From NCBI GenBank assembly GCA_964016885.1, contig OZ024742.1, positions 13,454,001 to 13,518,000 on the forward strand: DNA of 64,000 bases. The letters are read 5' to 3'. Source of the stretch: Eledone cirrhosa (taxonomy: Eukaryota). The first letter of the stretch is position 1. Each line of letters starts with the position of its first letter. The notes under the pieces are model-generated. The model did no database searches. It saw nothing but the letters and a program-made list of their open reading frames with translations, and was not told the origin of the DNA. Position numbers and translations under genes: made by a program. This document shows, piece after piece, positions 3,100 to 53,200 of this stretch.

Positions 3100-3310
3100 C
3101 ACAAGGCCAGCAATTTTGGAGAGAGGAAGTCTATTAAACAGACACCAGTGTGTTACTGGTACTCTATTTTACAGACCCCGTAATGATGAAAATAATAGCT
3201 AGCCTCGGTGGGATTTGAATCCAGAACGTAATCGGGCCGTAATTCTATGCCTCAAAAATGTTGTCCCACGCTGTATCGATACTGCCCAACCACGCCCAAC
3301 CACGCCCAAT
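3100..3310 (-). mobile_element. Degenerate copy of the abundant tRNA-like SINE family in this window
   Basis: Reverse complement matches the copies at 33308 and 42111 (GATTCAAATCCCACCGAGG B-box-like core, AGTACCAGT motif). Confidence 0.7.
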
Positions 3311-3574
3311 CACTGGCAATATATGAACAGATAAGTAATGGCAATACCATCTCCTAAGACGAGATCAACTCATTTGATGGAATGAATGATCAACCGTAAT
3401 TTTAAATAGTTGTTCTCAGTTAACGGAAGATCTCTGCATTGCCTAGAATTACAAGGATCTTTTGTGGTTGGATGAGAAAATGTTTCTTTAGATTCATTTG
3501 TCCCTAGTTGCGATCGTAGTCGCACTGATCAATCGCATTATCAGAACAAATATCAATCGAATCGACTGATAAGA

Positions 3575-3805
3575 TCCCAGACCTGGCTTACTGAGTGAGG
3601 TGGACCTCGTCAAATTAGACCAAGGAAACAATGTTACCATTGGAATTTCCGTTCCTGATACTATCTACCAGCCGCAACTCGTTGGCAGAAAGAGCAATGA
3701 GAAATTAAGTCTCTTACTCAAGGACATAACGCATCGCCTTGTCCGGGAATCGAGCTCACCGCTACATGAGTGCGACCCCAATTCCCTAACCACTAAGCCA
3801 CGATT
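3575..3805 (-). mobile_element. tRNA-derived SINE, second family
   Basis: Minus strand begins GTGGCTTAGTGGTTAGGG (A-box-like), then CTCGATTCCCGG (B-box-like), then a TGTCCTTGAGTAAGAGACTTAA core-like segment. Confidence 0.6.
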
Positions 3806-4164
3806 TTATAGATTTCCAATTAATCAATGTTATCTCTTAATTTCATTTTTCAATGAATTCTGTTTGAAACCACTGGTGTTAGTGGGCTTTTAATGGAATT
3901 GTTTTATCTGATTTTAGTTTAAAACCAATTGAGACAATGTAGAAACATGAAAGACCGTGTTTAGTTATACTAGTAATTGTACGAGGCAATTCAACAGATG
4001 TGGTCTCTTGTCACCACTAATTCTCTTTTATATTCATATGTGTGGCTTTACCGGCGGGCGTATATGGTGTGTAAAAATAATATCTGGTATGAGTCTAGAT
4101 TTATCAATGCATGTCACCTATTATCTGTGTCTGTGATGGTAGAGGACAGTAAGGACCACTGAGA

Positions 4165-4500
4165 ATGAGACTATAAGCCTTTTACTTAAACTGTTGCAGG
4201 TCGCTGAGAGCAGAAAATTATATTAAGTTATGGAATTCTGGAGATACACCGTTGGAACTAAAAATGATATGACGTATTGGTTGGTGTAGAATCTGGTTAT
4301 GGTGTCTGGTGAAAGGTTGAGACAAGTTTGCCGAGAATGAAGTGATACATGACAATTCAGTTCTAAATGAGACGAGGCAATATTTCATCGTAGAGTTTAT
4401 ACCTGAGATTTAGAGATGGAGAGATGGCCGAGACAGCAGTAGTTTCTGATAGAACAAATGGGTAAACTATGTAAATATTGCGAGCATTCTGGTGAAATAC
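4165..4500 (-). mobile_element. Highly decayed CR1/L2-group LINE 3' fragment
   Basis: Piecing frames together gives ...TNQYVISFLVPTVYLQNS...DLQQFK, resembling the C-terminal SF.PRT..LWNSLP...DLQ.FK motif. Confidence 0.35.
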
Positions 4501-5133
4501 ATTACAATAGTGCTAATATCATATAAATGGTGTAATGTTTGGTAACAGAATGGTAGCTTTTCATTATGAAGGTCCCCTTTATATATATTTAATGTCTCTA
4601 CATTCGCTACTTTAGTTAGAATATGAAGGTTAAGATTACTTGTACTATTTTACTAGCTTACTGAATACATGCATTAGACTGTGGTCATGCTAAAGAAGCG
4701 ATTTCACTGAATCGATCATACAACATCCTAGCGTTATGTTGTTATATCTCTCGATCATGTTGTCGGATCGCTAATGTATTGGAGACAAATAGGAAGGCCC
4801 ACAGAAATACACAACAGCACATATATACACACACATACACACATACGTACATGCTTACACATACATATGTACATACGTAAACACACATACATAAATATAT
4901 ATTTATATTAATATATAAATATATATACACATACACACACACAGACAACAACTCACAAACACACACACACACACCACATATATATATGTATATATATAAA
5001 ATAAATCATGCACAAAACGCCAGCACCAACAATTCTGCAAGAGATGTCAACATGAATGGATCTGTTATTTTCATATCAAGACATTTTTTCCAATTCCATA
5101 CCGCCCCTCCCCTCTATCTATCTTATTCCTCAT

Positions 5134-5169
5134 TCTTCTGATGAAGGACTAGCGCCCGAAACGTTAAGA
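5134..5169 (+). ncRNA. Minimal type I hammerhead ribozyme motif
   Basis: TCTT-CTGATGA-AGG(ACTAGCG)CCC-GAAACGTT-AAGA. Stem I is TCTT/AAGA; palindromic ACGT stem III (dimeric type); weak stem II. Confidence 0.55.
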
Positions 5170-5290
5170 CCCAATTCCTGCTATTTCAAGCGTTAACTTA
5201 ATATATCCCTTCCATATACTGTACCGATTGTGTTGTTATTTCTGTTTACCTTTTACATACAGTATATATATAAATATATATATATATATA

Positions 5291-6442
5291 GCGGCGATGA
5301 ATTAGTTTTGCGAGGTTTTTTATATGAAATCGTGTCGAAACAAATATTGTTATACTTGGGGAGGGTCATATTTGTGTAATATTGCCAAAATTAATAACAG
5401 AACACACTCACTGTTTGGTTGGTTTTCGTTTCTCGTTGTCTTTTATATCGGTAATCTAACTTACTCGGTCCTCAATGTTGCCATTGACTGACCAACAGTC
5501 AAAAATAATACAGATACAATATAGACACAAACACATATATATAGTTTATCATAAATCTTTCGTTGCACATCTGCAACACCTTCAGTGGTGTTATATTTTC
5601 CTCCTGTTGTGTTGTATGTCTACGCCATTTTTATTCAGTCTGTCTATATATATATTTATTTATTTGGTTGTTTGTTTATTTTATTTCGTCTTCTTTGCGC
5701 ATGCGTTTGCGTGTGTGTATAGTGTTATGTTTGCTGTGTGATGGGTGACTAGTGTGTGTTTATGTGCTTGTTGTTATTGTGCTTGTGTATGTATTTATTT
5801 ATTTATTTATCTTATTTTATTTACTTATTTATACTTCTCTTAGGTCAGTGTTGTTTGTTTTGGTGTTGTTGTTATTCCATTCATTCTTTCTGTTTAGACC
5901 AAAGCTAAACAGAAAGAATGAATGGAATAACAACAACACTCAAACAAACAACACTGACCTAAGAGAAGTATAAATAAGTAAATAAAATAAGATAAATAAA
6001 TAAATAAATACATACACAAGCACAATAACAACAAGCACATAAACACACACTAGTCACCCATCACACAGCAAACATAACACTATACACACATGCAAACGCA
6101 TGCGCAAAGAAGACGAAATAAAATAAACAAACAAGCAAATAAATAAATAAATACATAGACAGACTGAATAGAAATGGCGTAGACATACAACACAACAGGA
6201 GGAAAATATAACACCACTGAAGATGTTGCAGATGTGCAACGAAAGATTTATGATAAACTATATATATGTGTTTGTGTCTATATTGTATTTGTATTATTTT
6301 TGACCGTCGGTCAGTCAATGGCAACATTGAGGACCGAGTAAGTTAGATTACCGATATAAAAGACAACGAGAAACGAAAACCAACCAAACAGTGAGTGTGT
6401 TCTGTTATTAATTCTGGCAATATTACACAAATATGACCCTCC

Positions 6443-6445
<3 letters not shown>
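5291..6445. mobile_element. Head-to-head palindrome of Penelope-like element 3' ends
   Basis: Arms ~5358-5897 and ~5905-6444 are near-perfect reverse complements around a 7-nt spacer (ACCAAAG). The centre encodes PKLNRKNEWNNN, homologous to the GIY-YIG C-terminus PKLNRKHEWNSN at 6946-7215. (TA)n on both sides. Confidence 0.85.
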
Positions 6446-6477
<32 letters not shown>

Positions 6478-6478
<1 letters not shown>

Positions 6479-7345
6479 CGTTTCTGAATTTGTTTAGCAA
6501 GATTCTTTATCTGAAATCGTGTGTTGAAACCGATATTGTTATACTTTGGGAGGGTCATGTTGCCAATAAGAAACACACGCACCAGTTGCTTTTACTTCAA
6601 TTTATTATGAATTAAATTTATAAATTTAGGAATTTATAAATTTCCGGTTGGTTGGTTCCACAACCAGACGATTGTTCATATATTGTCAAAGTTCTTTCGT
6701 CACACAGTCTGTGACCTCTGTGACTGGGGATTCTTGTCTTTGTGTTTGTGCCTCTCCCTTGTTCTGTCCTACGCCATCTTGTTTTTGTGTGTGTTGTGTG
6801 CTTAGTTTGCGCATGTGTTACATCCGGGTGTCTGTGTGTGTTTATATTTGTTTATTTATTTGTTTATTTACATGTTACAGGTTTATTTACATGTTACATG
6901 TTACATGTTACATGTTACATGTGTGTGTGTGTTTTCATTTTGTCCTTAATTGTAAGTTGTGATGTTGCTATTCCATTCATGCTTTCTATTTAATTTTGGT
7001 TGGAGTTCATTTACGTTTATTGCCTCTGTGATTTGTCTAAACATTGCGTTTTTTCTGTGTGTAGATTCTATTATTATTTCTATGTCCTCTAATTTACCCT
7101 TATGTTCTATTTTAGCATGTTGGTATAGTACAGATGATTCTTTACTATCTTGAAGCTCTCGCCAGTGTTCATTTATCCGTTCCCCTACACTACGAGCTGT
7201 ATCACCTATGTACACTATATTCTTATCTCTATGCTATATACTACATTTCTAGTTTTACAGTTAATATGGGGGCTTAATTTACAGATTATACATTTCTTAT
7301 CTATACAGGGAGCTCTTTGAAAAGGGTATGTATTGCTAATAAGTG
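6478..7345 (-). mobile_element. Penelope-like element 3' fragment: GIY-YIG endonuclease plus 3' UTR
   Basis: ORF 6946-7215 reads YIGDTARSVGERINEH...RQITEAINVNELQPKLNRKHEW, preceded by Cys-rich sequence. The terminus at 6480-6560 is homologous to 5291-5370. Confidence 0.85.
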
Positions 7346-7654
7346 TTTTTATGTGTTTTTATGCTAATAAGTGTTTGTATGATATATATATATCAAAGGT
7401 ATATATTGAGTTAGAAACTCAAAATAGTCTCTTACAATAAAATAGCTCTAGGAAAGAGATTTTTCCGAGCCGTATATTATAACTGAATATAAAAGAAAAA
7501 CGAACACAGACATATACATATATGTGTTCAAATCGTAAGGGACCAGATTCGCTAAGGTGAAAAGAATACTAACTATAGACAATAGGGTTTCCCAGACTCA
7601 ATTTAAGAATAAATCAAGAAAGTAAATACAAACCGAAATTGTGGTAACTACCAA

Positions 7655-7733
7655 TCACCAGGACAGTTTGATAATGCTGTTTCGCAAAATTAATTGTGAA
7701 GAGGAATACCAATTCTTGCTCATCAGCGGGTGA
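7655..7733 (-). ncRNA. Type I hammerhead ribozyme (left member of an inverted pair)
   Basis: Minus strand: TCACCCG-CTGATGA-GCAAGA...TTTTGC-GAAAC-AG...CT-GTC-CTGGTGA. Intact core, three stems, GUC site. Confidence 0.8.
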
Positions 7734-7845
7734 AGAATTATTTGTATCCTGGTCACTTCTAAGTATATTAAAAAACTGAATAGTGTACGTATATATATAA
7801 TAGTGTGCGTATATATATAATAACGCATATTTTATCCGAACTTAG

Positions 7846-7916
7846 CGCTGATGGGCAAGAAATTGGTATTCCTCTTCACAATTAATTTTGCAAAACAGCA
7901 TTATCAAAGCTGTCCG

Positions 7917-7919
<3 letters not shown>
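7846..7919 (+). ncRNA. Degenerate inverted copy of the 7655-7733 hammerhead
   Basis: CTGATGG...TTTTGC-AAAAC-AGC...GCT-GTC-CGGGT with two core substitutions; abuts (TA)n. Confidence 0.65.
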
Positions 7920-8271
<352 letters not shown>

Positions 8272-8279
8272 GATGGAAT

Positions 8280-8430
8280 ACTTTCACACAATTTCCGCGT
8301 AACAAAATTTCTATGACAATGTATTGATCAACCCATGGCTATAGTGAAAGACACATGTTCAAAGTGTCAAGCAGTTGGATGGAACCCAAAGCCAGATGCT
8401 TGCAACTCAAACTACTTAACCACGCTCTTA
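8280..8430 (-). mobile_element. Degenerate SINE 5' part, third family
   Basis: Minus strand GCGTGGTTAAGTAGTTTG...TGGGTTCCATCCAACTGC...CACTTTGAACATGTGTCTTTCACTATAGCC is a tRNA-like head plus core. Confidence 0.55.
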
Positions 8431-9353
8431 TGCTTGGCAAGAAAAAAAAACCATCCTATATTATAATTTTACGGTTTCTTGGTTTGCAGTGAAAAATCAT
8501 CACTTACTTTTTCGAAATTGAAATCGGAAGGAAAGCTCGCACCTGCATTGTGGTATCATTACTTAATTGAGATTACAATGTTGTTTAAACATTATAATTC
8601 AACTGTAGACACATCTCTAAACATGTAATTATTCCAATATTTTCAATAATAACTGTTTAAATTACAAAAATGCGGAATACAAATTACTGTGATTATTTAT
8701 TTATTTATTTAATTATTTAATTACTATGTTAATTAATGTATTTATTGTTAATTTTGACACTAACTGCAGAAGCTGATTTGTTCCACTGTAAATTTCTTTA
8801 GTTTCGTGTCAAGATTTATTTCGTTACAAATAAGTAATTAAACTTGAACAAAATTTATCTTCCAAATGATCCAACAAAGGAGACTTTATGTGTTTGAGAA
8901 AACTGCTAAAAATAGTAGCAAAGTTACAGACTGTGGCGCATATATATTCACTCACATATACACAAACACTATTATACGCACATATACTCTCATATATACA
9001 CTCTCATATATACACTCACACACACACATATATATATACCCACACACACATATATACTCTCTCTCTCTCTCTCACACAGACACACACATATATATATATA
9101 TACATACATATGCACACCCACATACCTATACATACACACATATACATATATAAACATATATATATATATATACTCGATGGCTTGAGTCATTGTTTTCAGG
9201 AGTTGATGTCCGTTATTCTTTTTATAGATATGAGTTCTGAGTTGAAATCTCACCGAGATTATCTTTGTCTTTCATTGTTATGGAGTCGATAGGTAAACAC
9301 TCTACAATAAGTGTCTGAATATGAGAGGGGAATATGTTGAATAAAATCATAAT

Positions 9354-23397: not shown

Positions 23398-26300
23398 GGG
23401 TATGACATTAAACTACATCCAGTGGCAAGGCTCCAGTTCGGGAGTTCAGGAGATGTGGGGAATGTGGAGTTACCCCTTAGTTGTCATGACTCCCAGGTCT
23501 TCCCTGGCCCAGGGTGTTAGTACCTGTTAGGGCTCCATTTATGGGTTAAATAACTACCTTATTCGAGTGGCGCCGGTAAGGTATTGTCAGCCATTGAAAA
23601 GAAATATGGAGAGTTGATCTAACCGCACTAGGGTTAGAGCCCCTAATTACACTGTCAAGTAGCAGCCTGGTCGTTATGACTCTGCTGGCTTAGAGCCACA
23701 GAGAGGGCCAGTGGATGATGGATCAGCTGTCTCTGAGACAAATATAAAGAATGCAGTTTTGTCCTGCAGAAGAGCCATCAAAATGGGCACTTTGAATGTG
23801 AGGACTATTCGGACGCTGGAGAAGAGAGAGGAGTTGGGACATCTGTTCGAGGAGAGTGGTATACAGATACTTGCGATCCAAGAACACAGGATTCTACACG
23901 ATGAGCCCGTGAGGAGTGTGATGATCGGGAGGCAGAGCCAGCTCATCACTACATCGGCAGTGAAGAACACAAATGCTGCAGTAGGGGGAGTGGGTTTTGT
24001 GTTCAGTGCAAAAAACAATCTCCCCGCAAGTGTTGAGGGTGACCTTCAATGGAAACCCAAGACTGACAGTCATCTCAGCCTATAGTCCAACCGAGGGGGA
24101 CAGTGATGTGAATGCGGAAGAGTTCCATGAGGAGGTGTGGAGAGCTGTCAACACCACTCAGGCACACAATATCCTGCTTGTTTGGGGGGACTTCAATGCA
24201 CATCTGAGTAAGGAGGGCATTGAAGATCCTTGCTGGTACTTCCATAACAACACCAACCGAAATGGAAGACTACTGAGAGACACCCTGCTGGAGGCGAACT
24301 TGATGGCGACCAACCTAAGGTTTAGGAAGAATCTGGGGAAGATGTGGACCTACATCTCAGATATGCACCTGTCCAAGTCCCAGATTGATTTCATTCTGGT
24401 GAGGAAAAAGTGGCGGAATAGTGTTCTGAACAAGGAACCATACAGCTATTTCAGTACACTGGGAAGTGACCACCGGCTTGTTATGAGTGAGGTCCGCGTG
24501 AGCTTAAGAAAGAGCAAGGCTCAGCCCCGGAGAACAATCTATGACTGAGGAGCTTTCAAGGAAGATGATAAGCTACAGGAGAGGTTCACAGTGGAAGTGA
24601 GAAACAGGTTTAGTGCTCTGTATTGAGAGTCAGAGGAGAGAGAGATTGGAAGGACTGGGGAGAGTGTGACGAGGAGGTACGGGTACTTCACCAATGCAGT
24701 GGCGGAAGCAAGTGAAACCCTGGTGCCGAGGAAAAAGAACAAAGGGAAGCACGTCAGCTCTGCAAACCTAAAAGAGTGTGCAGCCAGAGAACACCTGAAA
24801 GCTGCCAGGGAACAATTCTATGCTGATCCTACGGAGGAGAGGATGGTGACTGTGGAGGTGATGAGGGAAGAGCTCTGTACCGCTTACACTGAGGTCAGAG
24901 AGGAAGCACTGATAGAGAAGATCAGTGTGGAGAGAGCGGTTGGCAGGTCTGGATGTAAGGAGAGCTGGATGATCATCAACGAGATCACAGGGAGGAAGAG
25001 AAGGTGTTCGAGTCAGATCCAGGGAACGGGGCCCGAGGATAGGAAGAGGAAATGGCTAGACCATTTTAGGACCCTACTAGGAGAGCCACCCTCCACAGCC
25101 CAGAGCACTGGGGAGATCAGGAGGCTGTTTGAGGAACTGGATGTTGAGACAGAGCCCTTCACCAGAGAGGAGCTTCAGAGAGCCAAAAAGAAGATCAAGG
25201 AGAGCAAGGCTCATGGAGAAAATGGAGTGGCATCAGAGGTGATGAAGAGGTGTGATTTTGATGATATCATCCTGGGGTTCTGTAACGGGGAACTGGAGAA
25301 AGGAGTTGCCCCGAATCAGTGGAGGATCAGTAACATCGTCCCAGTGCCAAAGAAGGGAGATCTCTCTAGCACCAACAACTACCAGGGGATCTCACTGACG
25401 TCACTTGTGGCAAAGACCCTCAACAGGATGATTCTTAGCAGGATCCAGCCTGAGACGGAGAAGAAGCTCAGGGACAACCAGAACGGCTTCAGAGAGGGTA
25501 GATCAACCACCAGTCACATCCTGATGCTGAGGAGGATATTAGAGGGAGCTAGAGCAAAGTGCCTTCCTGCGATCATGGTTTTCATTGACTTTAGGAAGGC
25601 CTTTGATTCTGTGGACCGTTAGTGCCTGATCTTACAGGCTTATGGAATCCCCAAGAAGATAGTGGACCTGATATCACTGCTCTACACCAACACCAAAGCC
25701 CAAGTCATTACACCTGATGGGATGACACAGTTCTTTGAGAAACTGGCTGAAGTGCCCCAGGGAGATACATTGTCTCCCTACCTTTTTATCATCGTAGTGG
25801 ACTATTGTATGCGCCTTGCACTGGAGAAACACCAGGACTCTGGCTTTACTGTAGCACCGGCTCAGAGCAGGAGAGTTAGAGCGAAAAAGGTATCGGATGC
25901 TGAATTTGCCGACGACATAGTTTTGGTGACAAATACAGTGAAGGAGGCAGAGGATTTGATGCGGGAGGTTGAGACTGTGTCGATGAGTGTGGGGCTGAGA
26001 ATGAATGAAACTAAAACAAAATATCTGGTAGAGAATGTTGAGAAGCCAGAGGGGATCACTAATGTAGGCGGGAAGCCACTAGAATTGGTTGAGGACTTCC
26101 TGTATTTGGGAGCAAAGATTGGGAATACGGAAGATGATGTGGTTAAGAGGAAGAGCAAAGCCTGGGCGGCGTGCCACAGCTTGAGATCGGTGTGAAAGTC
26201 GGACCTTCGTAAAGACATGAAAATCCACCTCTTCATTGCTGTAGTGGAGTCTGTACTGCTGTATGGGTCTGAGACTTGGACACTGAACAAGAAACTCACT

Positions 26301-26661
26301 CAGATGGTGGATGGGTGCTACACGAGAATGCTGAGGATGGCTCTGAACATTAATCAGTATACACTGAGGATGAAAAATTCAGAGCTGTATGGGATCCTCC
26401 CAAAAGTCAGCTCAAAAGTGACACAGAGGAGACTGAGGTTGGCTGGACATGCTCACCGACATCCAGAGTTGACATTGCACTCAGTGCTCCTTTGGGAGCC
26501 CCTACATGGACACACTAGATGAGCATGACCAAGGTTAACATATGTTGATGCCCTAAGGACAGACACTGGTCTGTTGGACATGCAGGATATGGCAGCGATA
26601 ATGAGGGACAGAGACCGCTGGAGAGAACTCGTCCATGCATCTCGGGAATTTTACCCGCCTT

Positions 26662-26734: not shown

Positions 26735-26931
26735 TAAACGAAAAAGAAAATGCTGACAAATTGTTCAATTGTTCACAGTGAAAAATGATTTAATTAGGAA
26801 TAAGTGAGAATTAGTAATAGTATTGGTAAGTATTCAGTTTGGGTTTTAAGTTTTACCGGTTGCGCATTTCTAATGCTTTTCAAAAATAATTTTGAGATAG
26901 AGCGTCCGTGATGTTTGCTCTGATCTGATTA

Positions 26932-26971
<40 letters not shown>

Positions 26972-27091
26972 TATAGACATAGAATATTCGAAAATATTCT
27001 GTATGTTTATAATAAACATTTTGAAGACCTAATCGCTATAGAATAGAATACGTCACGTATTACAATTAGATTCTCGATAAAAGCAAGGGAA

Positions 27092-27134
27092 GTAATCTAC
27101 GCGTTTCATTCTTGTTAGAAATCTTCAGGACTAC
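27092..27134 (-). ncRNA. Minimal type I hammerhead; repeated at +310, +620, +930 and +1240
   Basis: Reverse complement of 28864-28906. Confidence 0.85.
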
Positions 27135-28863
27135 ATATCCAGTGCTTTTATCGAGAATGACACAGCTAGAGACTTATAGAATACTTAGCTGTGTACAGGA
27201 ACTGGTTTGAAAGAGCGGTTGCCGGTCCGGCAGAAATTAGAAATTGGAATAAATGCTCTGAAATAGCGATATATATGTGAATATAGACATAGAATATTCG
27301 AAAATATTCTGTATGTTTATAATAAACATTTTGAAGACCTAATCGCTATAGAATAGAATACGTCACGTATTACAATTAGATTCTCGATAAAAGCAAGGGA
27401 AGTAATCTACGCGTTTCATTCTTGTTAGAAATCTTCAGGACTACATATCCAGTGCTTTAATCGAGAATGACACAGCTAGAGACTTATAGAATACTTAGCT
27501 GTGTACAGGAACTGGTTTGAAAGAGCGGTTGCCGGTCCGGCAGAAATTAGAAATTGGAATAAATGCTCTGAAATAGCGATATATATGTGAATATAGACAT
27601 AGAATATTCGAAAATATTCTGTATGTTTATAATAAACATTTTGAAGACCTAATCGCTATAGAATAGAATACGTCACGTATTACAATTAGATTCTCGATAA
27701 AAGCAAGGGAAGTAATCTACGCGTTTCATTCTTGTTAGAAATCTTCAGGACTACATATCCAGTGCTTTTATCGAGAATGACACAGCTAGAGACTTATAGA
27801 ATACTTAGCTGTGTACAGGAACTGGTTTGAAAGAGCGGTTGCCGGTCCGGCAGAAATTAGAAATTGGAATAAATGCTCTGAAATAGCGATATATATGTGA
27901 ATATAGACATAGAATATTCGAAAATATTCTGTATGTTTATAATAAACATTTTGAAGACCTAATCGCTATAGAATAGAATACGTCACGTATTACAATTAGA
28001 TTCTCGATAAAAGCAAGGGAAGTAATCTACGCGTTTCATTCTTGTTAGAAATCTTCAGGACTACATATCCAGTGCTTTAATCGAGAATGACACAGCTAGA
28101 GACTTATAGAATACTTAGCTGTGTACAGGAACTGGTTTGAAAGAGCGGTTGCCGGTCCGGCAGAAATTAGAAATTGGAATAAATGCTCTGAAATAGCGAT
28201 ATATATGTGAATATAGACATAGAATATTCGAAAATATTCTGTATGTTTATAATAAACATTTTGAAGACCTAATCGCTATAGAATAGAATACGTCACGTAT
28301 TACAATTAGATTCTCGATAAAAGCAAGGGAAGTAATCTACGCGTTTCATTCTTGTTAGAAATCTTCAGGACTACATATCCAGTGCTTTTATCGAGAATGA
28401 CACAGCTAGAGACTTATAGAATACTTAGCTGTGTACAGGAACTGGTTTGAAAGAGCGGTTGCCGGTCCGGCAGAAATTAGAAATTGGAATAAATGCTCTG
28501 AAATAGCGATATATATGTGAATATAGACATAGAATATTCGAAAATATGGATATGTAGTCCTGAAGATTTCTAACAAGAATGAAACGCGTAGATTAATTCC
28601 CTTGCTTTTATCGAGAATCTAATTGTAATACGTGACATATTCTATTCTATAGCGATTAGGTCTTCAAAATGTTTATTATAAACATACAGAATATTTTCGA
28701 ATATTCTATGTCTATATTCACATATATATCGCTATTTCAGAGCATTTATTCCAATTTCTAATTTCTGCCGGACCGGCAACCGCTCTTTCAAACCAGTTCC
28801 TGTACACAGCTAAGTATTCTATAAGTCTCTAGCTGTGTCATTCTCGATAAAAGCACTGGATAT

Positions 28864-28906
28864 GTAGTCCTGAAGATTTCTAACAAGAATGAAACGCGTA
28901 GATTAC
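28864..28906 (+). ncRNA. Minimal type I hammerhead; also at 28554-28596 and 29174-29216
   Basis: GTAGTC-CTGAAGA-TTTCT(AACA)AGAAT-GAAACGCGTA-GATTAC. 6-bp stem I, 4-bp stem II, palindromic ACGCGT stem III, GUA site. Confidence 0.85.
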
Positions 28907-29369
28907 TTCCCTTGCTTTTATCGAGAATCTAATTGTAATACGTGACGTATTCTATTCTATAGCGATTAGGTCTTCAAAATGTTTATTATAAACATACAGA
29001 ATATTTTCGAATATTCTATGTCTATATTCACATATATATCGCTATTTCAGAGCATTTATTCCAATTTCTAATTTCTGCCGGACCGGCAACCGCTCTTTCA
29101 AACCAGTTCCTGTACACAGCTAAGTATTCTATAAGTCTCTAGCTGTGTCATTCTCGATAAAAGCACTGGATATGTAGTCCTGAAGATTTCTAACAAGAAT
29201 GAAACGCGTAGATTACTTCCCTTGCTTTTATCGAGAATCTAATTGTAATACGTGACGTATTCTATTCTATAGCGATTAGGTCTTCAAAATGTTTATTATA
29301 AACATACAGAATATTTTCGAATATTCTATGTCTATATTCACATATATATCGCTATTTCAGAGCATTTAT

Positions 29370-29411
<42 letters not shown>

Positions 29412-29573: not shown

Positions 29574-31624
29574 ATAATAATAAATTTGAAGACTAAAATC
29601 CAAAGAGGGCTCGATAAGGATAAATATATTGCCGATAAATATATTGTCGATAACGATAAATACATTGCCGTTTTATCCAATTCAACATCAATAATTACTA
29701 CTCCTCCATCACTTTACCACTTCTCCTTAGAGCTAGCAACACTCACAGAATTCGAAGTTGATGTCATCCTAAATGCCCGTAAGTCGGTGATTAATTTCGA
29801 CAACTCTATTTGGATTAAAAAATCTAATAGTACCCCATTCGACGTGAGTATGGGCGCCAGCGATTCTGCGGAGGTTACTGATCTTATCGGCCTTTTCCTT
29901 CTTTTCTCTATCAAGGACGATTTCCCCAACGCGGGCGGTGGTTTGTACCGTGAGATGGTCTTTTGACCATGACTAAATGCGGCCCTCGTGCTTGCGACAG
30001 GTTCAGAAAAGAACTCACAGCCTTCTTTAAAGGCTTCAACCTCTCTATACAGGTTGAGGCCAACCTCTCGGTTGTTAATTACCTCGACGTTACCCTCAAT
30101 TTATCGAATGGCTTGTATTACCCGTATAGAAAGCCGAATGATACGCTTAATTACATAAGTAAGCATTATAACCATCCTGCCAGCATAACCAAGAACCTGG
30201 TAAGAAACGTTTCGTTGAGCTTTCCCGTCTACCGACTAACGAGCATATTTTCAATGACCATTCCACATATTACAATGAAGCTCTTGCTCGGAGTTGATTT
30301 GTCGATAAGGTTGCATATACAGAGTACGAGAATAGACCTAGAAGTAATTGATCCCGACGCATTATATGGTATAACCCACGATATAATATGGAGGTTGCCA
30401 CACCATTAACTAAGATCTTTCTATCCCTTATTACGAAACATTTTCCCCCTACACATAAATATAGTAACATTTTTAATAGAAATACTATTAAAATGTCTAC
30501 GACTCCCAACCTTGCACATAACAGCACAGCTTCAAATTTAGCTAAACTACCTAGCCGTAGGAACACGTGCAACCCTGTAGTTAGTACTAACTGTAACTGT
30601 AGGAATCGGGTTGATTGCCCCCTATCCGGGAAATGCCTCTCTAGTAACATTGTCTACAAATGTAAGGTTGAAAAACCCAAGTCCCGTAGTGCCTACATAG
30701 GGTTAATCGCCAATAGATTCAAGCAGCGTCTTTACATGCATACCCATTCTTTTCGTTATCCTCTAAGAAGGAATATGACGTCACTTTCAGCTTATATCTG
30801 GAGTCTAAAAGACAACCACACCCAATATAAGTTACACTGGGAGATCCTAGCTAAGGTTAAATCGTATAACGGAAATAAAAGCCCATGTGACCTCTGCGCC
30901 GCTGAGACCCTGGAAATACTCTACGCCACAGACCACATCTTAAACAAAAAATCTGAGTCAATTTCGGCTTGTAAACATAAATTGCACAAACTTTCCTGTA
31001 TTACAGCCCCACATTATACCCTAACGGATAGTACGATCTATACGTGGATATTTTACGTCGATGCGGTAGCTAAGTATATGTTATGTTTATGCCATTACTT
31101 ATTTGCATAGGTAAATATATATTACCTGTATGTTTTGTGAAGGTACGTATACTTTCTCATACGTATATCTGATTGTATATGTTATGGCGTATATTTTATA
31201 TATTCTGGTACATATGCTTTTGGTTATGTGTATACGTGAGTTTTGCGTCTGTGTGAGTATGTGGGTTCGTACGTATGTATGGTGTGTCTCTATGTGTACT
31301 TTGTGTTTTGGTTGACGTAGTCTCTGAACATTTGTGTATTTATATGTAGGTATGTGTGTGCGCTTGTTATATACGTATTTATTTATTTACATACGTTTAT
31401 TTAATTATTTGTATACACGCACACAGACACACACACACACACACACACATATTTATATGTGCCTGTATTTGTATACCTATGTATGCTTGTGTATGTACGT
31501 ATATGGATGCGTGTATGTATTTATTTAATTTCAATTACCTCTGTATTTTATTTACTTTATTCTTAACTCTGATGCTGAGAATCCTAGTTAGAAGTTTAGT
31601 TTACGACTTCAGTTATACCATTTA

Positions 31625-32189: not shown

Positions 32190-32191
32190 TG

Positions 32192-32982
32192 GTTACACAA
32201 CAGTTAGTTCACCATACCGAGAACAATTGTTTCACCTTCGCGGATCTTCAGCTCGGGATGTGTATGGTTATAGAAACAAGAAGGACAACCGTACTAACGC
32301 GCATGCGCAGAAACTCGGTCACTTCACACAGGCAATATTAGACTGCGTGCGGGAGGTGTAAGGGAGATAACTGCGAAAGTCTGGAAAGTTTTTAGGTTGA
32401 AAATAAAATTTAAAAAATAAAATTTAAAAAATAAAATTTAAAAAATAAAATTTAAAAAATAAAAATAAAATTACAAAGAATCAGTCCGGAGCCTTGTAGT
32501 TATTCAATAGATGTTTGGTGACGTGTGGACAACGTGTGAAAAATTCACTTCTCGTGTTTAGGCAATCACTATTGCAACGAACCACAGGAGGTCAAATCGT
32601 ATGTGGGCATGCGGAGGGCCGATTCAAGGAGCGTTTCCTGAACCACCAGTCTACCTTCAGATACCCGGACAGACGTTCATCCACGAACTCGCGATCCACG
32701 TATGGTCCCTCAAGGACTCAAGTATAGGCTACTACATTCAATGGAAATCCATCACTAAGTCCAAGCAATACGCAAGGGGAAATCCAACTTTGGGCTTATG
32801 TATTGACGAACGAATAACTATCCTAAAGAGATTACGCAATAGTGATTGCCTAAACACGAGAAGTTAATTTTTCACATGTTGTCCACACGTCACCAAACAT
32901 CTATATACATACATATCCCGAGCTGAAGATCCGCGAAGGTGAAACAATTGTTCTCGATATGGTGAACTAACTGTTGTGTAAC
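32192..32982. mobile_element. Penelope-like remnant: inverted 3' end joined to a forward GIY-YIG fragment
   Basis: 32590-32867 (+) gives GHAEGRFKERFLNHQSTF...ELAIHVWSLKD...LCIDE...LNTRS. 32192-32575 is the reverse complement of 32836-32982, and the right copy has an internal deletion. Confidence 0.85.
32918..32957 (+). ncRNA. Minimal type I hammerhead; inverted copy at ~32217-32256 (-)
   Basis: CCGAG-CTGAAGA-TCC(GCGAA)GGT-GAAACAATTGTT-CTCG(G). Palindromic ACAATTGT stem III, GUU site. Confidence 0.78.
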
Positions 32983-33041
32983 TAACTCGTCCCCTGGACT
33001 GAGTGCTCTCCCACTACGGATATTACCTTCCAGTGTTCCAC

Positions 33042-34164: not shown

Positions 34165-36174
34165 TGGTGAAGTGCCCGTACCTTCACGTCACACTCTCCT
34201 CAGTCCATCCAATCTCTCTCTCCTCTGTCTCTCCACAAAGAGCACTGAACCTGTACATCACTTCCACTGTGAACCTCTCCTGTAGCTTATCATCTTCCTT
34301 TAAAGCTCCCCAGTCAAGCAAGTGAGACCCTGGTGCCGAGGGGAAAGAACAAAAGGAAGCATCTCAGCTCTGCAGACCCAAAAGTGCGTGCAGCCAGAGA
34401 ACACCTGAGAGCTGCCAAGGACCGATTCTATGCTGATCCTACGAGGAGAGAATGGTGACTGTGGAGGTGATGAAGCAAGAACTCTGTAACGCTTACACTG
34501 AGGCCAGAGAGGAGGCACTGATAGAGAAGATCAGAAGTGTGGAGAGAGCTGTTGACAGGTCTGGATGTAAGGAGAGCTGGATGATCATCAACGAGATCAC
34601 AGAAAGGAAGAGGTGTTCGAGTCAGATCCCGGGAACAGGGCCCGAGGATAGGAAGAGGAAATGGCTAGACCATTTTAGGACCCTACTAGGAGAGCCACCC
34701 TCCACAGCCCAGATCACTGGGGAGATCAGGCGGCTGTCTGAAGAACTGGATATTGAGACAGATCCCTTCACCAGAGAGGAGCTTCAGAGACCGAAGAAAA
34801 AGATCAAGGAGGGCAAGGCTCATGGAGAAGATGGAGTGGAATCAGAGGTGATGAAGAGGTGTGATTTTGATGATATCATCCTGGGGTTCTGTAACCAGGA
34901 ACTGGAGAAAGGAGTTGCCTCGAATCAGTGGTGGATCAGTAACATCGTCCCAGTGCCAAAGAAGGGAGATCTCTCTAACACCAACAACTACAGGGGGATC
35001 TCACTGACATCACTTGTGGCAAAGACCCCCAACAGGATGATTCTTAACAGAATCCAGTCTGAGATGGAGAAGAAGCTCAGGGACAACCAGAACGGCTTCA
35101 GAGAGGGAAGATCAACCACCAGTCACATTCTGATGCTGAGGAGGATATTAGAGGGAGCTAGAGCAAAGTGCCTTCCTGCGATCATGGTTTTCATTGACTT
35201 TAGGAAGGCCTTTGATTGTGTGGACCGTCAGTGCCTGATGAAGATCTTACAGGCTTATCGAATACCCAAGAAGATAGTGGACCTGATATCATTGCTCTAC
35301 ACCAACACCAAAGCCCAAATCATTACACCTGATGGGATGACACAGTTCTTTGAGATACTGCCTGGAGTGCTCCAGGAAGATACATTGGCTCCCTACCTTT
35401 TTATCATCGCAGTGGACTATTGTATCCGCCTTGCACTGGAGAAACACCAGGACTCTGGCTTTACTGTAGCACCGGCTCAGAGCAGCAGAGTTAAGGCGAA
35501 AACGATATCGGATGCTGAATTTGCCGACGACATAGTTTTGGTGACAAATACAGTGAAGGAGGTAGAGGATTTGATGCAGGAAGTTGAGACTGTGTCGATG
35601 AGTGTGGGGTTGAGAATGAATGAGACTAAAACAAAATATCTGGTAGAGAATGTTGAGAAGCCAGAGGGGATCACTAATGTAGGCGGGAAGCCACTAGAAT
35701 TGGTTGAGGACTTCCTGTATTTGGGAGCAAAGATTGGGAATACGGAAGATGATGTGGTTAAGAGGAAGAGCAAAGCCTGGGCGGCGTGCCACAGCTTGAG
35801 ATCGGTGTGGAAGTTGGACCTTCGTAAAGACATGAAAATCCACCTCTTCATTGCTGTAGTGGAGTCTGTACTGCTGTATGGGTCTGAGACTTGGACACTG
35901 AACAAGAAACTCACTCAGATGGTGGATGGGTGCTACACGAGAATGCTGAGGATGGCTCTGAACATTAATCAGTATACACTGAGGATGAAAAACTCAGAGC
36001 TGTATGGGATCCTCCCAAAAGTCAGCTCAAAAGTGACACAGAGGAGACTGAGGTTGGCTGGACATGCTCACCGGCATCCAGAGTTGACATTGCACTCAGT
36101 GCTCCTGTGGCAGCCCCTACATGGACACACTGGAAGAGCAAGACTAAGGTAACGTTTTTGATGCTCTAAGGACA
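34163..36174 (+). mobile_element. 5'-truncated, 5'-inverted copy of the 23.4-kb RTE
   Basis: 34316-36174 is colinear with 24706-26560; 34163-34316 is the reverse complement of 24542-24695. Confidence 0.95.
34452..36152 (+). pseudogene. Open 566-aa RTE reverse transcriptase remnant (no endonuclease)
   Basis: Uninterrupted ORF with NYRGISL, QNGFREGRST, DFRKAFD, FADD. The QG motif is altered to QE. Confidence 0.85.
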
Positions 36175-42432: not shown

Positions 42433-44300
42433 ACTTAGGTAATAGTTATAGAGTAATTTGTAGATAACACCTAGGTAATAGTAATAGAGTAATTTGTAAA
42501 TAACACCTAGGTAATAGTTATAGAGTAATTTGTAAATAACACCTAGGTAATAGTTATAGAGTAACTTGTAGATAACACCTAGGTAATAGTAATAGAGTAA
42601 TTTGTAAATAACACCTAGGTAATAGTTATGGAGTAATTTGTAAATAACACCTAGGTAATAGTAATAGAGTAATTTGTAAATAACACCTAGGTAATGGTTA
42701 TGGAGTAACTTGTAGATAACACCTAGGTAATAGTTATAGAGTAACTTGTATATAACACCTAGGTAATAGTTATAGAGTAATTTGTAAATAACACCTAGGT
42801 AATAGTAATAGAGTAATTTGTAAATAACACCTAGGTAATAGTTATGGAGTAACTTGTAGATAACACCTAGGTAATAGTTATGGAGTAACTTGTAGATAAC
42901 ACCTAGGTAATAGTTATAGAGTAACTTGTAGATAACACCTAGGTAATAGTTATGGAGTAACTTGTAGACAACACCTAGGTAATAGTAATAGAGTAACTTG
43001 TAGATAACACCTAGGTAATAGTAATGGAGTAACTTGTAGATAACACCTAGGTAATAGTTATAGAGTAATTTGTAGATAACACCTAGATAATAGTTATAGA
43101 GTAACTTGTAGATAACACCTAGGTAATAGTAATAGTGACTTGTAGATAACACCTAGGTAATAGTTATAGAGTAATTTGTAGATAACACCTAGATAACAGT
43201 AATAGAGTAATTTGTAGATAACACCTAGGTAATAGTTATAGAGTAACTTGTAGATAACACCTAGGTAATAGTTATAGAGTAACTTGTAGATAACACCTAG
43301 GTAATAGTTATAGAGTAACTTGTAGATAACACCTAGGTAATAGTAATAGAGTAATTTGTAGATAACACCTAGGTAATAGTTATAGAGTAATTTGTAGATA
43401 ACACCTAGGTAATAGTTATAGAGTAACTTGTAGATAACACCTAGATAACAGTAGTAGAGTAACTTGTAGATAACACCTAGGTAATAGTTATAGAGTAACT
43501 TGTAGATAACACCTAGGTAATAGTAATAGAGTAACTTGTAGATAACACCTAGGTAATAGTAATGGAGTAACTTGTAGATAACACCTAGGTAATAGTTATA
43601 GAGTAACTTGTAGATAACACCTAGGTAATAGTAATAGAGTAACTTGTAGATAACACCTAGGTAATAGTTATAGAGTAACTTGCAGATAACACCTAGGTAA
43701 TAGTTATAGAGTAACTTGTAGATAACACCTAGGTAATAGTAATAGAGTAACTTGTAGATAACTCCTAGGTAATAATAATGGAGTAACTTGTAGATAACAC
43801 CTAGGTAATAGTTATAGAGTAACTTGTAGATAACACCTAGGTAATAGTTATAGAGTAACTTGTAGATAACACCTAGGTAATAGTAATAGAGTAACTTGTA
43901 GATAACACCTAGGTAATAGTTATAGAGTAACTTGTAGATAACACCTAGATAACAGTAATAGAGTAATTTGTAGATAACACCTAGGTAATAGTTATAGAGT
44001 AACTTGTAGATAACACCTAGGTAATAGTAATAGTGACTTGTAGATAACACCTAGGTAATAGTAATAGAGTAACTTGTAGATAACACCTAGGTAATAGTTA
44101 TAGAGTAACTTGTATATAACACCTTGGTAATAGTTATAGAGTAACTTGTAGATAACACCTAGGTAATAGTTATAGAGTTATTTGTAGATAACACCTAGGT
44201 AATAGTTATAGAGTAACTTGTAGATAACACCTAGATAATAAATAGAGTAACTTGTAGATAATAGCTAGGTAATTGTTATAGAGTAACTTATAGATAACTG
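42433..44300. repeat. 36-bp satellite A (ACACCTAGGTAATAGTTATAGAGTAACTTGTAGATA), about 52 units
   Basis: Direct; gives the 12-aa YYLGVIYKLLYN pseudo-ORFs. Confidence 0.97.
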
Positions 44301-47097: not shown

Positions 47098-47247
47098 GTA
47101 AATTATCTAAATTCATGATATTGGTATAGTAGAGATATTTCTCATTGCTCACTATTGGTAATCTCGTATGACGTAGGGGTTACGAGAGGAAAATACATTC
47201 TCATCCCCAAGTGTACAGCCATAGATAGATACAGGGATGTATGATAT

Positions 47248-50200
47248 TGTACAGTGATATATAGATACATTGATGTACTATAGTATACAGTGATATATAG
47301 ATACACTGATGTACTATAGTGTAGTGATATATAGATACACTGATGTACTATAGTATACAGTGATATATAGATATACTGATGTAATATAGTTTACAGTGAT
47401 ATATAGATATACTGATGTACTATAGTGTATAGTGATATATAGATACACTGATGTACTATAGTGTACAGTGATATATAGATATACTGATGTACTATAGTGT
47501 ACAGTGATATATAGATATACTGATGTACTATAGTGTACAGTGATATATAGATACATTGATGTACTATAGTATACAGTGATATATAGATACACTGATGTAC
47601 TATAGTATACAGAGATATATAGATATACTGATGTACTATAGTGTAGTGATATATAGATACACTGATGTACTATAGTATACAGTGATATATAGATATACTG
47701 ATGTAATATAGTATACAGTGATATATAGATATACTGATGTACTATAGTGTATAGTGATATATAGATACACTGATGTACTATAGTGTACAGTGATATATAG
47801 ATATACTGATGTACTATAGTGTATAGTGATATATAGATATACTGATGTACTATAGTATATAGTGATATATAGATACACTGATGTACTATAGCGTACAGTG
47901 ATATATAGATATACTGATGTACTATAGTATATAGTGATATATAGATACACTGATGTACTATAGTGTATAATGATATATAGATATATTGATGTACTATAGT
48001 GTATAGTGATATATAGATATACTGATGTACTATAGTGTACAGTCATATATAGATATACTGATGTACTATAGTGTATAGTGATATATAAATATACTGATGT
48101 ACTATAGTGTACAGTGATATATAGATACACTGATGTACTATAGTATACAGTGATATATAGATATCCTGATGTACTATAGTGTACAGTGATATATAGATAC
48201 GCTGATGTACTATAGTATATAGTGATATATAGATATACTGATGTAATATAGTGTATAGTGATATATAGATACACTTATGTACTATAGTATACAGTGATAT
48301 ATAGATATACTGATGTACTATAGTGTATAGTGATATATAGATATACTGATGTACTATAGTGTACAGTCATATATAGATATACTGATGTACTATAGTGTAT
48401 AGTGATATATAGATATACTGATGTACTATAGTGTACAGTGATATATAGATACACTGATGTACTATAGTGTATAGTGATATATAGATACACTTATGTACTA
48501 TAGTATACAGTGATATATAGATATACTGATGTACTATAGTGTATAGTGATATATAGATATACTGATGTACTATAGTGTACAGTCATATATAGATATACTG
48601 ATGTACTATAGTGTATAGTGATATATAGATATACTGATGTACTATAGTGTACAGTGATATATAGATACACTGATGTACTATAGTGTATAGTGATATATAG
48701 ATATACTGATGTACTATAGAGTATAGTGATATATAGATATACTGATGTACTATAGTGTATGGTGATATATAGATATACTAATGTACTATAGAGTATAGTG
48801 ATATATAGATATACTGATGTACTATAGTATACAGTGATATATAGATACACTGATGTACTATAGTATACAGTGATATATAGATATCCTGATGTACTATAGT
48901 GTACAGTGATATATAGATACGCTGATGTACTATAGTATATAGTGATATATAGATATACTGATGTAATATAGTGTATAGTGATATATAGCTACACTGATGT
49001 ACTATAGTATATAGTGATATATAGATACACTGATGTACTATAGTATACAGTGATATATAGATACATTGATGTACTATAGTATACAGTGATATATAGATAC
49101 ACTGATGTACTATAGTATACAGAGATATATAGATATACTGATGTACTATAGTGTAGTGATATATAGATATACTGATGTACTATAGTGTATAGTGATATTT
49201 AGATATACTGATGTACTATAGTGTACAGTGATATATAGATATACTGATGTACTATAGTGTACAGTGATATATAGATATACTGATGTACTATAGTATACAG
49301 TGATATATAGATACACTGATGTACTATAGTGTACAGTGATATATAGATATACTGATGTACTATAGTGTACAGTGATATATAGATATACTGATGTACTATA
49401 GTGTACAGTGATATATAGATATACTGATGTACTATAGTGTATAGTGTTATATAGATACACTGATGTACTATAGTGTACAGTGATATATAGATATACTGAT
49501 GTACTATAGTGTAGTGATATATAGATATACTGATGTACTATAGTGTACACTGATATATAGATATACTGATGTACTATAGTGTACAGTGATATATAGATAT
49601 ACTGATGTACTATAGTGTAGTGATATATAGATATACTGATGTACTATAGTGTACAGTGATATATAGATATACTGATGTACTATAGTGTATAGTGATATAT
49701 AGATACACTGATGTACTATGGTGTATAGTGATATATAGATACACTGATGTACTATAGTGTACAGTGATATATAGATATACTGATGTACTATAGTGTAGTG
49801 ATATATAGATATACTGATGTACTATAGTGTACACTGATATATAGATATACTGATGTACTATAGTGTACAGTGATATATAGATATACTGATGTACTATAGT
49901 GTACAGTGATATATATATATATACTGGTGTACTATAGTGTACAGTGATATATAGATATACTGATGTAATATAGTGTACAGTGATATATAGATATACTGAT
50001 GTACTATAGTGTATAGTGATATATAGATACACTGATATACTATGGTGTATAGTGATATATAGATACACTGGTGTACTATAGTATACAGTGATATATAGAT
50101 ATACTGATGTACTATAGTGTACACTGATATATAGATATACTGATGTACTATAGTGTATAGTGATATATAGATACACTGATGTACTATAGTGTACAGTGTT

Positions 50201-53200
50201 ATATAGATATACTGATGTACTATAGTGTATAGTGAGATATAGATATACTGATGTACTATAGTGTATAGTGATATATAGATATACTGATGTACTATAGTGT
50301 ATAGTGATATATAGATATACTGATGTACTATAGTGTATAGTGACATATAGATATACTGATGTACTTTAGTATATAGTGATATATAGATATACTGATGTAC
50401 TATAGTGTACAGTGATATATAGATATCCTGATGTACTATAGTGTATAGGGATATATAGATATACTGATGTACTATAGTGTATAGTGATATATAGATATAC
50501 TGATGTACTATAGTGTATAGTGATATATAGATATACTGATGTACTATAGTGTATAGTGATATATAGATATACTGATGTACTATAGTGTATAGTGATATAT
50601 AGATATACTGATGTACTTTAGTATATAGTGATATATAGATATACTGATGTACTATAGTATACAGTGATATATATATATACTGATGTACTATAGTGTATAG
50701 TGATATACAGATATACTGATGTACTATAGTATATAGTGATATATAGATATACTGATGTACAATAGTATATAGTGATATATAGATACACTGATGTACTATA
50801 GCGTACAGTGATATAAAGGTATATTGATGTACTATAGTGTACAGTGATATATAGATATACTGATGTACTGTAGTGTACAGTGATATATAGATACACTGAT
50901 GTACTATAGTGTATAGTGATATATAGATATACTGATGTACTATAGTGTACAGTGATATATAGATATACTGATGTACTATAGTATACAATGATATAGAAAT
51001 ATACTGATGTACTATAGTGTACAGTGATATACAGATATACTGATGTACTATAGTATATAGTGATATATAGATATACTGATGTACTATAGTATATAGTGAT
51101 ATATAGATACACTGATGTACTATAGTGTATAGTGATATATAGATATACTGATGTACTATAGTATATAGTGATATATAGATATACTGATGTACTATAGGAT
51201 ATAGTCTTATATAGATACAGTGATGTACTATAGCGTACAGTGATATATAGATATACTGATGTACTATAGTATATAGTGATATATAGATACACTGATGTAC
51301 TATAGTGTATAATGATATATAGGTATACTGATGTACTATAGTGTATAGTGATATATAGATATACTGATGTACTATAGTGTACAGTCATATATAGCTATAC
51401 TGATGTACTATAGTGTATAGTGATATATAGATACACTGATGTACTATAGTGTATAGTGATATATAGATAGACTGATGTACTATAGTGTATAGTGATATAT
51501 AGATATACTGATGTACTATATTGTATCGTGATATATAGATATACTGATGTACTATAGTGTATAGTGATATATAGATACACTGATGTACTATAGTGTATAG
51601 TGATATATAGATACACTGATGTACTATAGTGTATAGTGATATATAGATATACTGACGTACTATAGTGTATAGTGATATATAGATACACTGATGTACTATA
51701 GTGTATAGTGATATATAGATATACTGATGTACTATAGTGTATAGTGATATATAGATATACTGATGTACTATAGTGTATAGTGATATATAGATACACTGAT
51801 GTACTATAGTGTATAGTGATAAATAGATATACTGATGTACTATAGTGTATAGTGATATATATATACACTGATGTACTATAGTGTATAGTGATATATATAT
51901 ATACTGATGTACTATAGTGTATAGTGATATATAGATATACCGATGTACTATAGTGTACAGTGATATATAGATATACTGATGTACTATAGTATACAGTGAT
52001 ATAGAAATATACTGATGTACTATAGTGTACAGTGATATACAGTTATACTGATGTACTATAGTATATAGTGATATATAGATATACTGATGTACTATAGTGT
52101 ACAGTGATATATAGATATACTGATTACTATAGTGTACAGTGATATATATATATACTGATGTACTATAGTGTACAGTGATATATAGATATACTGATGTACT
52201 GTAGTGTACAGTGATATATAGATACACTGATGTACTATAGTGTATAGTGATATATAGATATACTGATGTACTATAGTGTACAGTGATATATAGATATACT
52301 GATGTACTATAGTATACAATGATATAGAAATAAACTGATGTACTATAGTGTACAGTGATATACAGATATACTGATGTACTATAGTATATAGTGATATATA
52401 GATATACTGATGTACTATAGTATATAGTGATATATAGATACACTGATGTACTATAGTGTATAGTGATATATAGATATACTGATGTACTATAGTATATAGT
52501 GATATATAGATATACTGATGTACTATAGGATATAGTCTTATATAGATACAGTGATGTACTATAGCGTACAGTGATATATAGATATACTGATGTACTATAG
52601 TATATAGTGATATATAGATACACTGATGTACTATAGTGTATAATGATATATAGGTATACTGATGTACTATAGTGTATAGTGATATATAGATATACTGATG
52701 TACTATAGTGTACAGTCATATATAGCTATACTGATGTACTATAGTGTATAGTGATATATAGATACACTGATGTACTATAGTGTATAGTGATATATAGATA
52801 CACTGATGTACTATAGTGTATAGTGATATATAGATATACTGACGTACTATAGTGTATAGTGATATATAGATACACTGATGTACTATAGTGTATAGTGATA
52901 TATAGATATACTGATGTACTATAGTGTATAGTGATATATAGATATACTGATGTACTATAGTGTATAGTGATATATAGATACACTGATGTACTATAGTGTA
53001 TAGTGATAAATAGATATACTGATGTACTATAGTGTATAGTGATATATATATACACTGATGTACTATAGTGTATAGTGATATATATATATACTGATGTACT
53101 ATAGTGTATAGTGATATATAGATATACTGATGTACTATAGTGTACAGTGATATATAGATATACTGATGTACTATAGTATACAGTGATATAGAAATATACT

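Follow-up and report, generated by a model that had tools for sequence, protein, structure and literature searches.

The array and its hammerhead motif

The window analysed here, a stretch of 64,000 nucleotides (G000:C3:13454001-13518000) from the microsatellite-rich, 3.0-Gb genome of Eledone cirrhosa, contains a tandem array of 310-bp units whose two arms meet head to head within a (TA)n tract. The left arm (26959-28547) comprises 5.1 units with the hammerhead sense on the minus strand, its 3′ end facing left. The right arm (28547-29375) comprises 2.7 inverted units with the hammerhead sense on the plus strand, and its 3′ end, which carries a tail of 26-35 nt, lies at monomer position 165. 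The target tract is present at both ends (26936-26968 and 29374-29408), and on the left its last bases are shared with the 3′ end of that arm (monomer ∼130-139). Units recur with a period of 310 bp at 99% matches, GC content is 33-36% in 2-kb bins across the array, and the array contains neither an LTR layout nor a stop-to-stop frame of at least 110 aa. The family is dispersed and abundant, with 16,244 units and 1,206 ends of one type genome-wide.

A preliminary description had called the array a ribozyme array, and the unit does contain a type I hammerhead motif, recognised by sequence and fold, with predicted cleavage. In unit 1 the motif lies at 27092-27134 (minus strand; sequence reading, motif scan, and fold), and the motif scan places further left-arm copies every 310 bp, at 27402, 27712, 28022, and 28332 (minus strand). 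The right arm has a motif at 28864-28906 (plus strand), with a predicted cut after 28900, which is indicated by sequence reading, fold, and variant pattern; others lie at 28554-28596 and 29174-29216 (plus strand). The motif consists of stem I (GTAGTC/GATTAC), the core CTGAAGA...GAAA, a 4-bp stem II, and a 2-bp stem III within the palindrome ACGCGT. A 16-bp stem surrounds the hammerhead (28840-28855 with 28913-28928, plus strand; -31.9 kcal/mol, z -5.1). Rfam, in both gathering and E-value modes, matched no hammerhead family and returned only microsatellite noise, so the assignment rests on direct reading and the variant pattern. The motif agrees with the canonical animal type I hammerhead (6-bp helix I, 4-bp helix II, short palindromic helix III) as set out in PMC4209133. 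By its sequence the unit fits the animal non-LTR retrozymes, with self-cleavage and circular RNAs as predicted properties. The loci that we fetched contain at least six other families of hammerhead motif, and one more lies at position 5132 of the window.

Several other repeats occupy the window. A decayed Penelope-like region with RT and GIY-YIG similarity (29580-31110) adjoins the array and is unlike the 310-bp unit. Its language-model look-alikes score 0.96-0.97, one cluster having GIY-YIG in 23% of its members, and a Pfam search of three frames of this fragment gave no match. A short Penelope-like piece between TA tracts (32190-33000) contains a type I hammerhead motif at 32917 (plus strand) and an apparent inverted copy near 32200-32260, which gives a coding element an apparently head-to-head layout. 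The 310-bp unit has no similarity to the Penelope-like fragments within the window, and in the fetched loci only non-coding repeats 67-80% alike resemble it. These related repeats (L077, 800-1100; L135, 4950-5620; L040, 7450-8150; and L147, 2930-3320) are likewise two-armed and retain the sequence surrounding both 3′ end sites (monomer ∼116-178). A ∼200-bp high-copy sequence lies between two TA tracts immediately left of the array (26735-26935); it is also found in L135 and, at depth, in contigs. Farther away are two decayed LINE-type copies with endonuclease- and RT-like frames (23663-26660, with RVT_1 matches, and 34437-36152) and two different 36-bp tandem arrays of 52 and more than 467 copies (42436-44298 and 47210-64000).

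Arm geometry and Penelope-type ends

Sibling insertions were sampled on contig C1, from the first 100 listed among the 1,206 genome-wide ends of this type; subtraction of four already included and of L135 (parsing) gave 95 insertions. Two head-to-head arms are present in 88 of the 95. Where one arm, the anchor, ends at position 165-167, its partner ends at 138-139 in all 85 visible cases and never at 165, and four further partner ends that were completed later (three originally cut off) also fall at 139. One array outside the 95-insertion sample ends at 265/174. In 76 of 85 cases the partner end is followed by at least 6 further TA bases. A target-site duplication is masked by TA in the window; candidates are present in 22 of 85 siblings, most of them nearly pure TA and counted without a control.

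Overlap at the junction between arms is most often 0-4 bases (53/88), and 9 of 88 junctions are near-symmetric (within 10 nt), against 6.0 expected. Raw mutation rates are 0.62 per kb within 310 nt of the junction and 0.32-0.57 per kb beyond. In the window, monomer position 101 of the left arm meets position 267 of the right arm at 28547 with a 1-base overlap, and the longest perfect palindrome near this point has a half-length of only 4. The preliminary description had held that the right arm is no fold-back copy, and this junction upholds that view. A self-primed right arm was rejected on the same two observations and on the siblings, in which 72 of 77 unfixed variant sites are not mirrored between arms.

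This layout, with an inverted 5′-truncated copy, a tail at one end, and a (TA)n target, has the signature of Penelope insertions. Penelope-like insertions are described (Craig et al. 2021, PMC8557442; Arkhipova et al. 2013, PMC3846280) as an inverted 5′-truncated copy joined head to head, with a 30-40 bp tail and a (TA)n or AT-rich target. With a purified Penelope protein, both strands are cut and extended, and the tail is bounded by two adjacent internal start sites (Frangieh et al. 2024, PMC11167929). The arm geometry of the window family points to priming from both DNA ends. The window array is a young insertion: a hammerhead retrozyme with a 310-bp unit, set in (TA)n and with ends of the Penelope type.

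One haplotype per insertion

Both arms of the window array carry a single hammerhead haplotype, one found in 838 of about 16,250 units (∼5%). The same uniformity holds across the family. Among sampled insertions with at least 2.1 units in both arms, the two arms share a haplotype in 51 of 53, with 22 haplotypes represented, whereas 10,000 shuffles of the haplotypes matched 6.8 insertions on average and never more than 17. The two that do not match, L098 and L125, are partial switches. In L098 (311-4329) the haplotype changes after four units in one arm; in L125 (G000:C1:136717211-136726210; 2289-8690) the outermost two units carry 294T and the inner units 284T/287A, on both arms. A switch on the same lap in both arms of L125 could reflect a joint change of template or RNA-templated repair of a broken junction.

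Rare variants behave in the same way. Two that occur in 46 and 29 units genome-wide occupy every unit of both arms where they are fixed in two-armed arrays; elsewhere they turn up singly, in one array with a single arm, or in a diverged relative. Two other variants that we probed are commoner (357 and 232 units), and none of the four is unique to a locus. Among the matches listed (up to 100 per variant), the probed variants are spaced by 309-312 bp within arms; the exceptions are a pair of 620-bp gaps within a single arm, which trace to duplication of a single-unit change, and the irregular multiples of the L111 variant.

Variants fixed throughout an array differ in kind from those confined to one unit. 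Array-fixed substitutions within stems produce G-U or A-U pairs in six of six cases and leave the core untouched, with two insertions in stem I, and the sites hit by array-fixed variants are N7, loop 2, and wobble positions. At structured sites, 27 of 30 single-unit variants are damaging (Fisher p 0.0007, even when the two insertions are counted as damaging). Because fixed variants keep the structure and single-unit variants mostly break it, the array-wide variants would have come through a functional RNA, and the single-unit variants would have arisen afterwards.

Single-unit changes are infrequent, at 0.0005 per base overall (132-138 changes in about 910 sampled units), and one 38-unit array (L175/176) is uniform, with no single-unit change at all. 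Siblings that share rare haplotypes have no single-unit variants in common. Of 77 unfixed sites, only five are mirrored across both arms. In L106 (7358-8690) one variant recurs in mirror position in the outer units of the two arms, and L044 (3680-4735) and L172 (844-5086) have variants common to both sides of the junction.

The one-haplotype pattern is best explained by a monomer copied in repeated laps; it suggests that, in each insertion, a single one-unit RNA, probably circular, served as template for both arms. Possible alternatives are a linear multimer derived from a uniform source and sibling monomers made by the same source array, and haplotype sharing is blind to the difference between one molecule and such siblings. 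A linear mode, in which both primers copied along a source array, is not favoured, given the 72 unmirrored sites, the lack of shared single-unit variants among siblings, and the uniform 38-unit array, although single-unit changes may post-date insertion, which weakens that argument. The preliminary description had assigned the two arms of the window array to different molecules. Unrelated molecules are disfavoured, because both arms carry a ∼5% haplotype and 51 of 53 insertions match; sibling molecules are possible.

An alternating variant in the left arm

Alignment of the units confirms, for the assembly, the A-B-A-B-A series reported in the preliminary description. Left-arm units 1, 3, and 5 read AGTGCTTTTATCG (at 27141, 27761, and 28381), and units 2 and 4 read AGTGCTTTAATCG (at 27451 and 28071). 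The discriminating base is T at 27149, 27769, and 28389 (the A form), and a T>A change gives the B form at 27459 in unit 2 and, 620 bp away, at 28079 in unit 4 (plus strand). It corresponds to A>U at monomer position 259 on the ribozyme strand and is the sole internal difference among the 5.1 left-arm units; a second listed difference, at 26967, falls where the arm meets the TA tract. The right arm, also as reported earlier, has only the T form, here at its only two informative sites (28849 and 29159, plus strand), together with private changes in its junction-proximal unit: 28596 C>A (GATTAA), which affects the outer pair of stem I, and 28637 G>A (GTGACAT), which lies at a CpG. These two are ordinary single-unit changes.

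The B form is very rare, with three copies in the genome against 16,244 of the A form. Two are in the window array, and the third, at G000:C6:39520845 (L168), is a single unit with another haplotype (210A/294T). No source unit with B and the haplotype of the window array exists elsewhere in the assembly. B introduces a U-U mismatch into the 16-bp stem and weakens that stem by 3.9 kcal/mol (-28.0 for the B unit versus -31.9 kcal/mol), while A>G at the same monomer position yields a G-U pair and is fixed in three sampled insertions. Under independent mutation, ∼7 × 10−4 doubly hit sites are expected in an array of this size, and B has only three copies genome-wide; the two window copies therefore share one origin. 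Given one shared mutation, the order of the units is weak evidence: A-B-A-B-A is one of ten placements of two variants in five units, and a distance of two units occurs in three of the ten.

Logan contigs (X1, X2, X3, and X11) contain the family at great depth and do not phase the array. At 100% likeness, no Logan contig spans 28079 with A; such contigs lose rare variants and may derive from another individual, and we treat this result as neutral.

Repeated variants across the family

Alternation was surveyed in 146 stretches with 278 arms and about 1,390 of the more than 16,000 units, with duplicates, L135, and L170 left out. The first 38 of these loci were chosen for likeness to the window unit, and a later batch was chosen for rare variants or for completion of long arrays. 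The preliminary description had named similar alternation at other loci as a check on its reading, and none was found in the 116 other arms with at least four units. Counting the window's left arm, the 117 arms of this length include 10 with a repeated unfixed variant, at gaps of 1-27 units. The share of arms with such a variant climbs with arm length (2/54, 1/44, 4/13, and 3/6), as local exchange predicts. Besides the window arm and the haplotype switch in L098, only one of 98 arms of 4-12 units has a repeated variant.

In longer arms, linked variants repeat together at offsets of 7 (L087), 17 (L181/182), and 27 units (L111/185); these are block duplications. The locus formed by L111 and L185 (G000:C1:97461199-97479700) has a 45-unit arm with a private double change present nine times and a 27-unit block duplication, and is a higher-order repeat forming inside a retrozyme insertion. 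The nine occurrences of the L111 variant are confined to one arm and to this place in the genome, and they include B-a-B motifs with no overall phase. Exchange at the DNA level thus produces B-a-B motifs. A gap of two units is the commonest among the repeats listed (7/24, versus 2/24 for one unit, in a hand count of gaps that are not independent). Of the seven, four are in one arm, one is a junction look-alike, and one is in the window array.

The look-alike is in L046, whose B-a-B start was considered as a second alternating case and rejected, since its first B is junction sequence. The repeated variant there (6620 and 7230) lies at an imperfect palindrome of the unit (positions ∼81-93), and the same micro-inversion is found in contig joints. 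This site is likely a template-switch hotspot.

Origin of the alternation

On balance, we favour one mutation in a left-arm unit followed by a local duplication or conversion of 620 bp in DNA, within an insertion whose arms likely came from one single-unit RNA, probably a circle. The alternation would then probably be an ordinary incipient higher-order repeat. At the locus itself, 310-bp units that each contain a hammerhead motif are arranged head to head in two arms within (TA)n, and the 3′ ends lie at ∼130-139 and 165. By analogy with other animal retrozymes, for which this has been demonstrated, transcripts may be cut to monomers and then circularised. A Penelope-like RT/GIY-YIG protein would cut both strands of the (TA)n target, both 3′ ends would prime on the RNA, at its pair of neighbouring start sites, and be extended along it for lap after lap, and the two cDNAs would unite through a few bases of overlap. 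The one haplotype seen in all units of both arms is the pattern left behind. The T>A change would have arisen once, as an RT error or later, and been duplicated by slippage or unequal exchange, with a register of two units, either during integration or afterwards.

Several observations argue for mutation and local duplication. B is private to the left arm (3 versus 16,244 copies), and the assembly has no same-haplotype unit that could have been its source; both informative right-arm sites are of the A form, whereas a shared dimer or linear template predicts B on the second lap; B belongs to the structure-breaking class that is otherwise seen in single units; and repeated variants elsewhere in the family, which become more frequent with arm length, include block duplications at offsets of 7, 17, and 27 units. 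Against it, local duplication is itself uncommon in short arms (1/98), and two-unit gaps are the commonest in the list (7/24). Occasional template changes (L098 and L125) and the five mirrored sites among 77 also weigh against it, as do the limits of haplotype sharing noted above, and the circle, the cleavage, and the partner element enter it as inferred components.

The preliminary description had proposed a heterodimeric template, either a dimeric circle or a 620-bp duplication. The duplication half of that proposal is now the likeliest explanation, and the circle half fares worse, given the A-A right arm, the single alternating arm among 117, and the stem that B breaks. A version that accommodates the right arm, in which a circularised, uncut A+B dimer RNA was the template of the left arm, while the right arm came from an A monomer of sibling origin or followed a template switch, seems to us unlikely. 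In its favour, the phase is perfect through all five left units, template switches do occur (L098 and L125), and two-unit gaps are the commonest in the list of repeats. The stem that B weakens, by 3.9 kcal/mol, also bridges the cleavage site, and this loss of stability could favour a skipped cut. Axolotl retrozymes, moreover, have multimeric RNAs, and a circular dimer is a residual product in vitro (PMC7229834). Against it, every arm copied from a heterodimer should show a strict two-unit phase, and the arms read a-B-a-B-a on the left and a-a on the right. The dimer account needs two rare events, a heterodimer (none of the 116 other arms alternates) and a separate template for the other arm, and the constancy of the partner end at 138-139 opposite an anchor at 165-167 (85/85) points to one coordinated complex. 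A same-haplotype source unit with B is absent from the assembly, and B is of a class that is never fixed. It is correspondingly doubtful that the left arm is a fossil of rolling-circle reverse transcription on a two-unit circle, in which a stem-weakening mutation spared one hammerhead and a Penelope RT complex held two sibling RNAs.

Near-identical tandem and inverted repeats are generally hard to assemble, and the alternation is an observation on the assembly. A slip, in which a two-unit block was written twice or misplaced reads produced a consensus error, is nonetheless improbable, and more so than a dimer template. The insertion is 2.4 kb long, sister arrays are clean (the 38-unit L175/176 has no single-unit change, and the overall rate is 0.0005 per base), and B is a substitution; polishing with multi-mapped reads would tend to erase rather than create an allele present in 3 of 16,000 units. 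Difficulty of assembly is stated for Penelope-like insertions in PMC8557442.

Two independent hits on the same base, in units 2 and 4, are very improbable indeed: the same change did arise independently once elsewhere (L168) and nine single-unit variants recur at several loci, but only ∼7 × 10−4 such sites are expected here and 0.18 identical pairs among all 140 within-locus pairs, and three B copies in more than 16,000 units indicate no mutation hotspot.

Comparison with known systems

In satellite higher-order repeats, unequal exchange that copies a block of n monomers generates a pattern of period n. Those repeats are long homogenised arrays, whereas the present pattern involves a single site within a mobile insertion, in an arm of five units. 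In L1 twin priming, both target ends prime, the 5′ part is inverted, and joins have short overlaps, with the two cDNAs drawn from different parts of one linear RNA. Unlike these, the arms of the retrozyme insertions both repeat the same monomer many times, and their starts lie 26-35 nt apart.

Animal non-LTR retrozymes, as presented in portions of Cervera and de la Pena 2020 (PMC7229834) and Li, Clavereau and Pollet 2026 (bioRxiv 10.64898/2026.07.22.740005), are likewise non-coding tandem repeats of ∼300 bp (150-450) and low GC, with one type I hammerhead per unit and thousands of copies. For them, reverse transcription of circular monomers into tandem cDNA and a Penelope origin have been proposed in these two reports. 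RNA and cleavage are demonstrated for the animal retrozymes described there, whereas the window family is known from DNA. Head-to-head arms, fixed asymmetric 3′ ends, one haplotype per insertion, and variant phasing characterise the window family and do not appear in those portions of the two reports; the word ‘inverted’ occurs nowhere in PMC7229834. A search of main texts in the open-access literature found no report of variant phasing or of a two-armed layout for retrozyme arrays.

With Penelope-like insertions, as portrayed in PMC11167929, PMC8557442, and PMC3846280, the family shares the inverted 5′-truncated copy, the tail, the (TA)n target, and the two starts. Unlike Penelope-like elements, the 310-bp unit has no ORF, and both arms are multi-unit arrays. 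Arkhipova et al. 2013 (PMC3846280) ascribed head-to-head repeats to self-priming at palindromes; junctions in the window family are, by contrast, mostly asymmetric (9/88 within 10 nt, 6.0 expected).

Implications

The family-wide signature of a single-monomer template is more interesting than the alternation, which is probably nothing unusual and should not be used to argue for a dimeric circle. True dimer templates can be told from local duplication by a simple rule, that the phase should be present on both arms and extend over at least six units. If the dimer reading were nevertheless true, then, in combination with the family-wide one-haplotype pattern, the template that a primer followed on each lap, a monomeric or a dimeric circle, could be read from the genome. 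The results bear on two questions: the insertion of retrozymes through reverse transcription of a circular monomer, which is so far a proposal, and the origin of the inverted ends and tail of Penelope elements. One haplotype throughout, fixed variants selected by fold, and one outer end for each start site are the expected trace of one monomer copied from both ends of a break.
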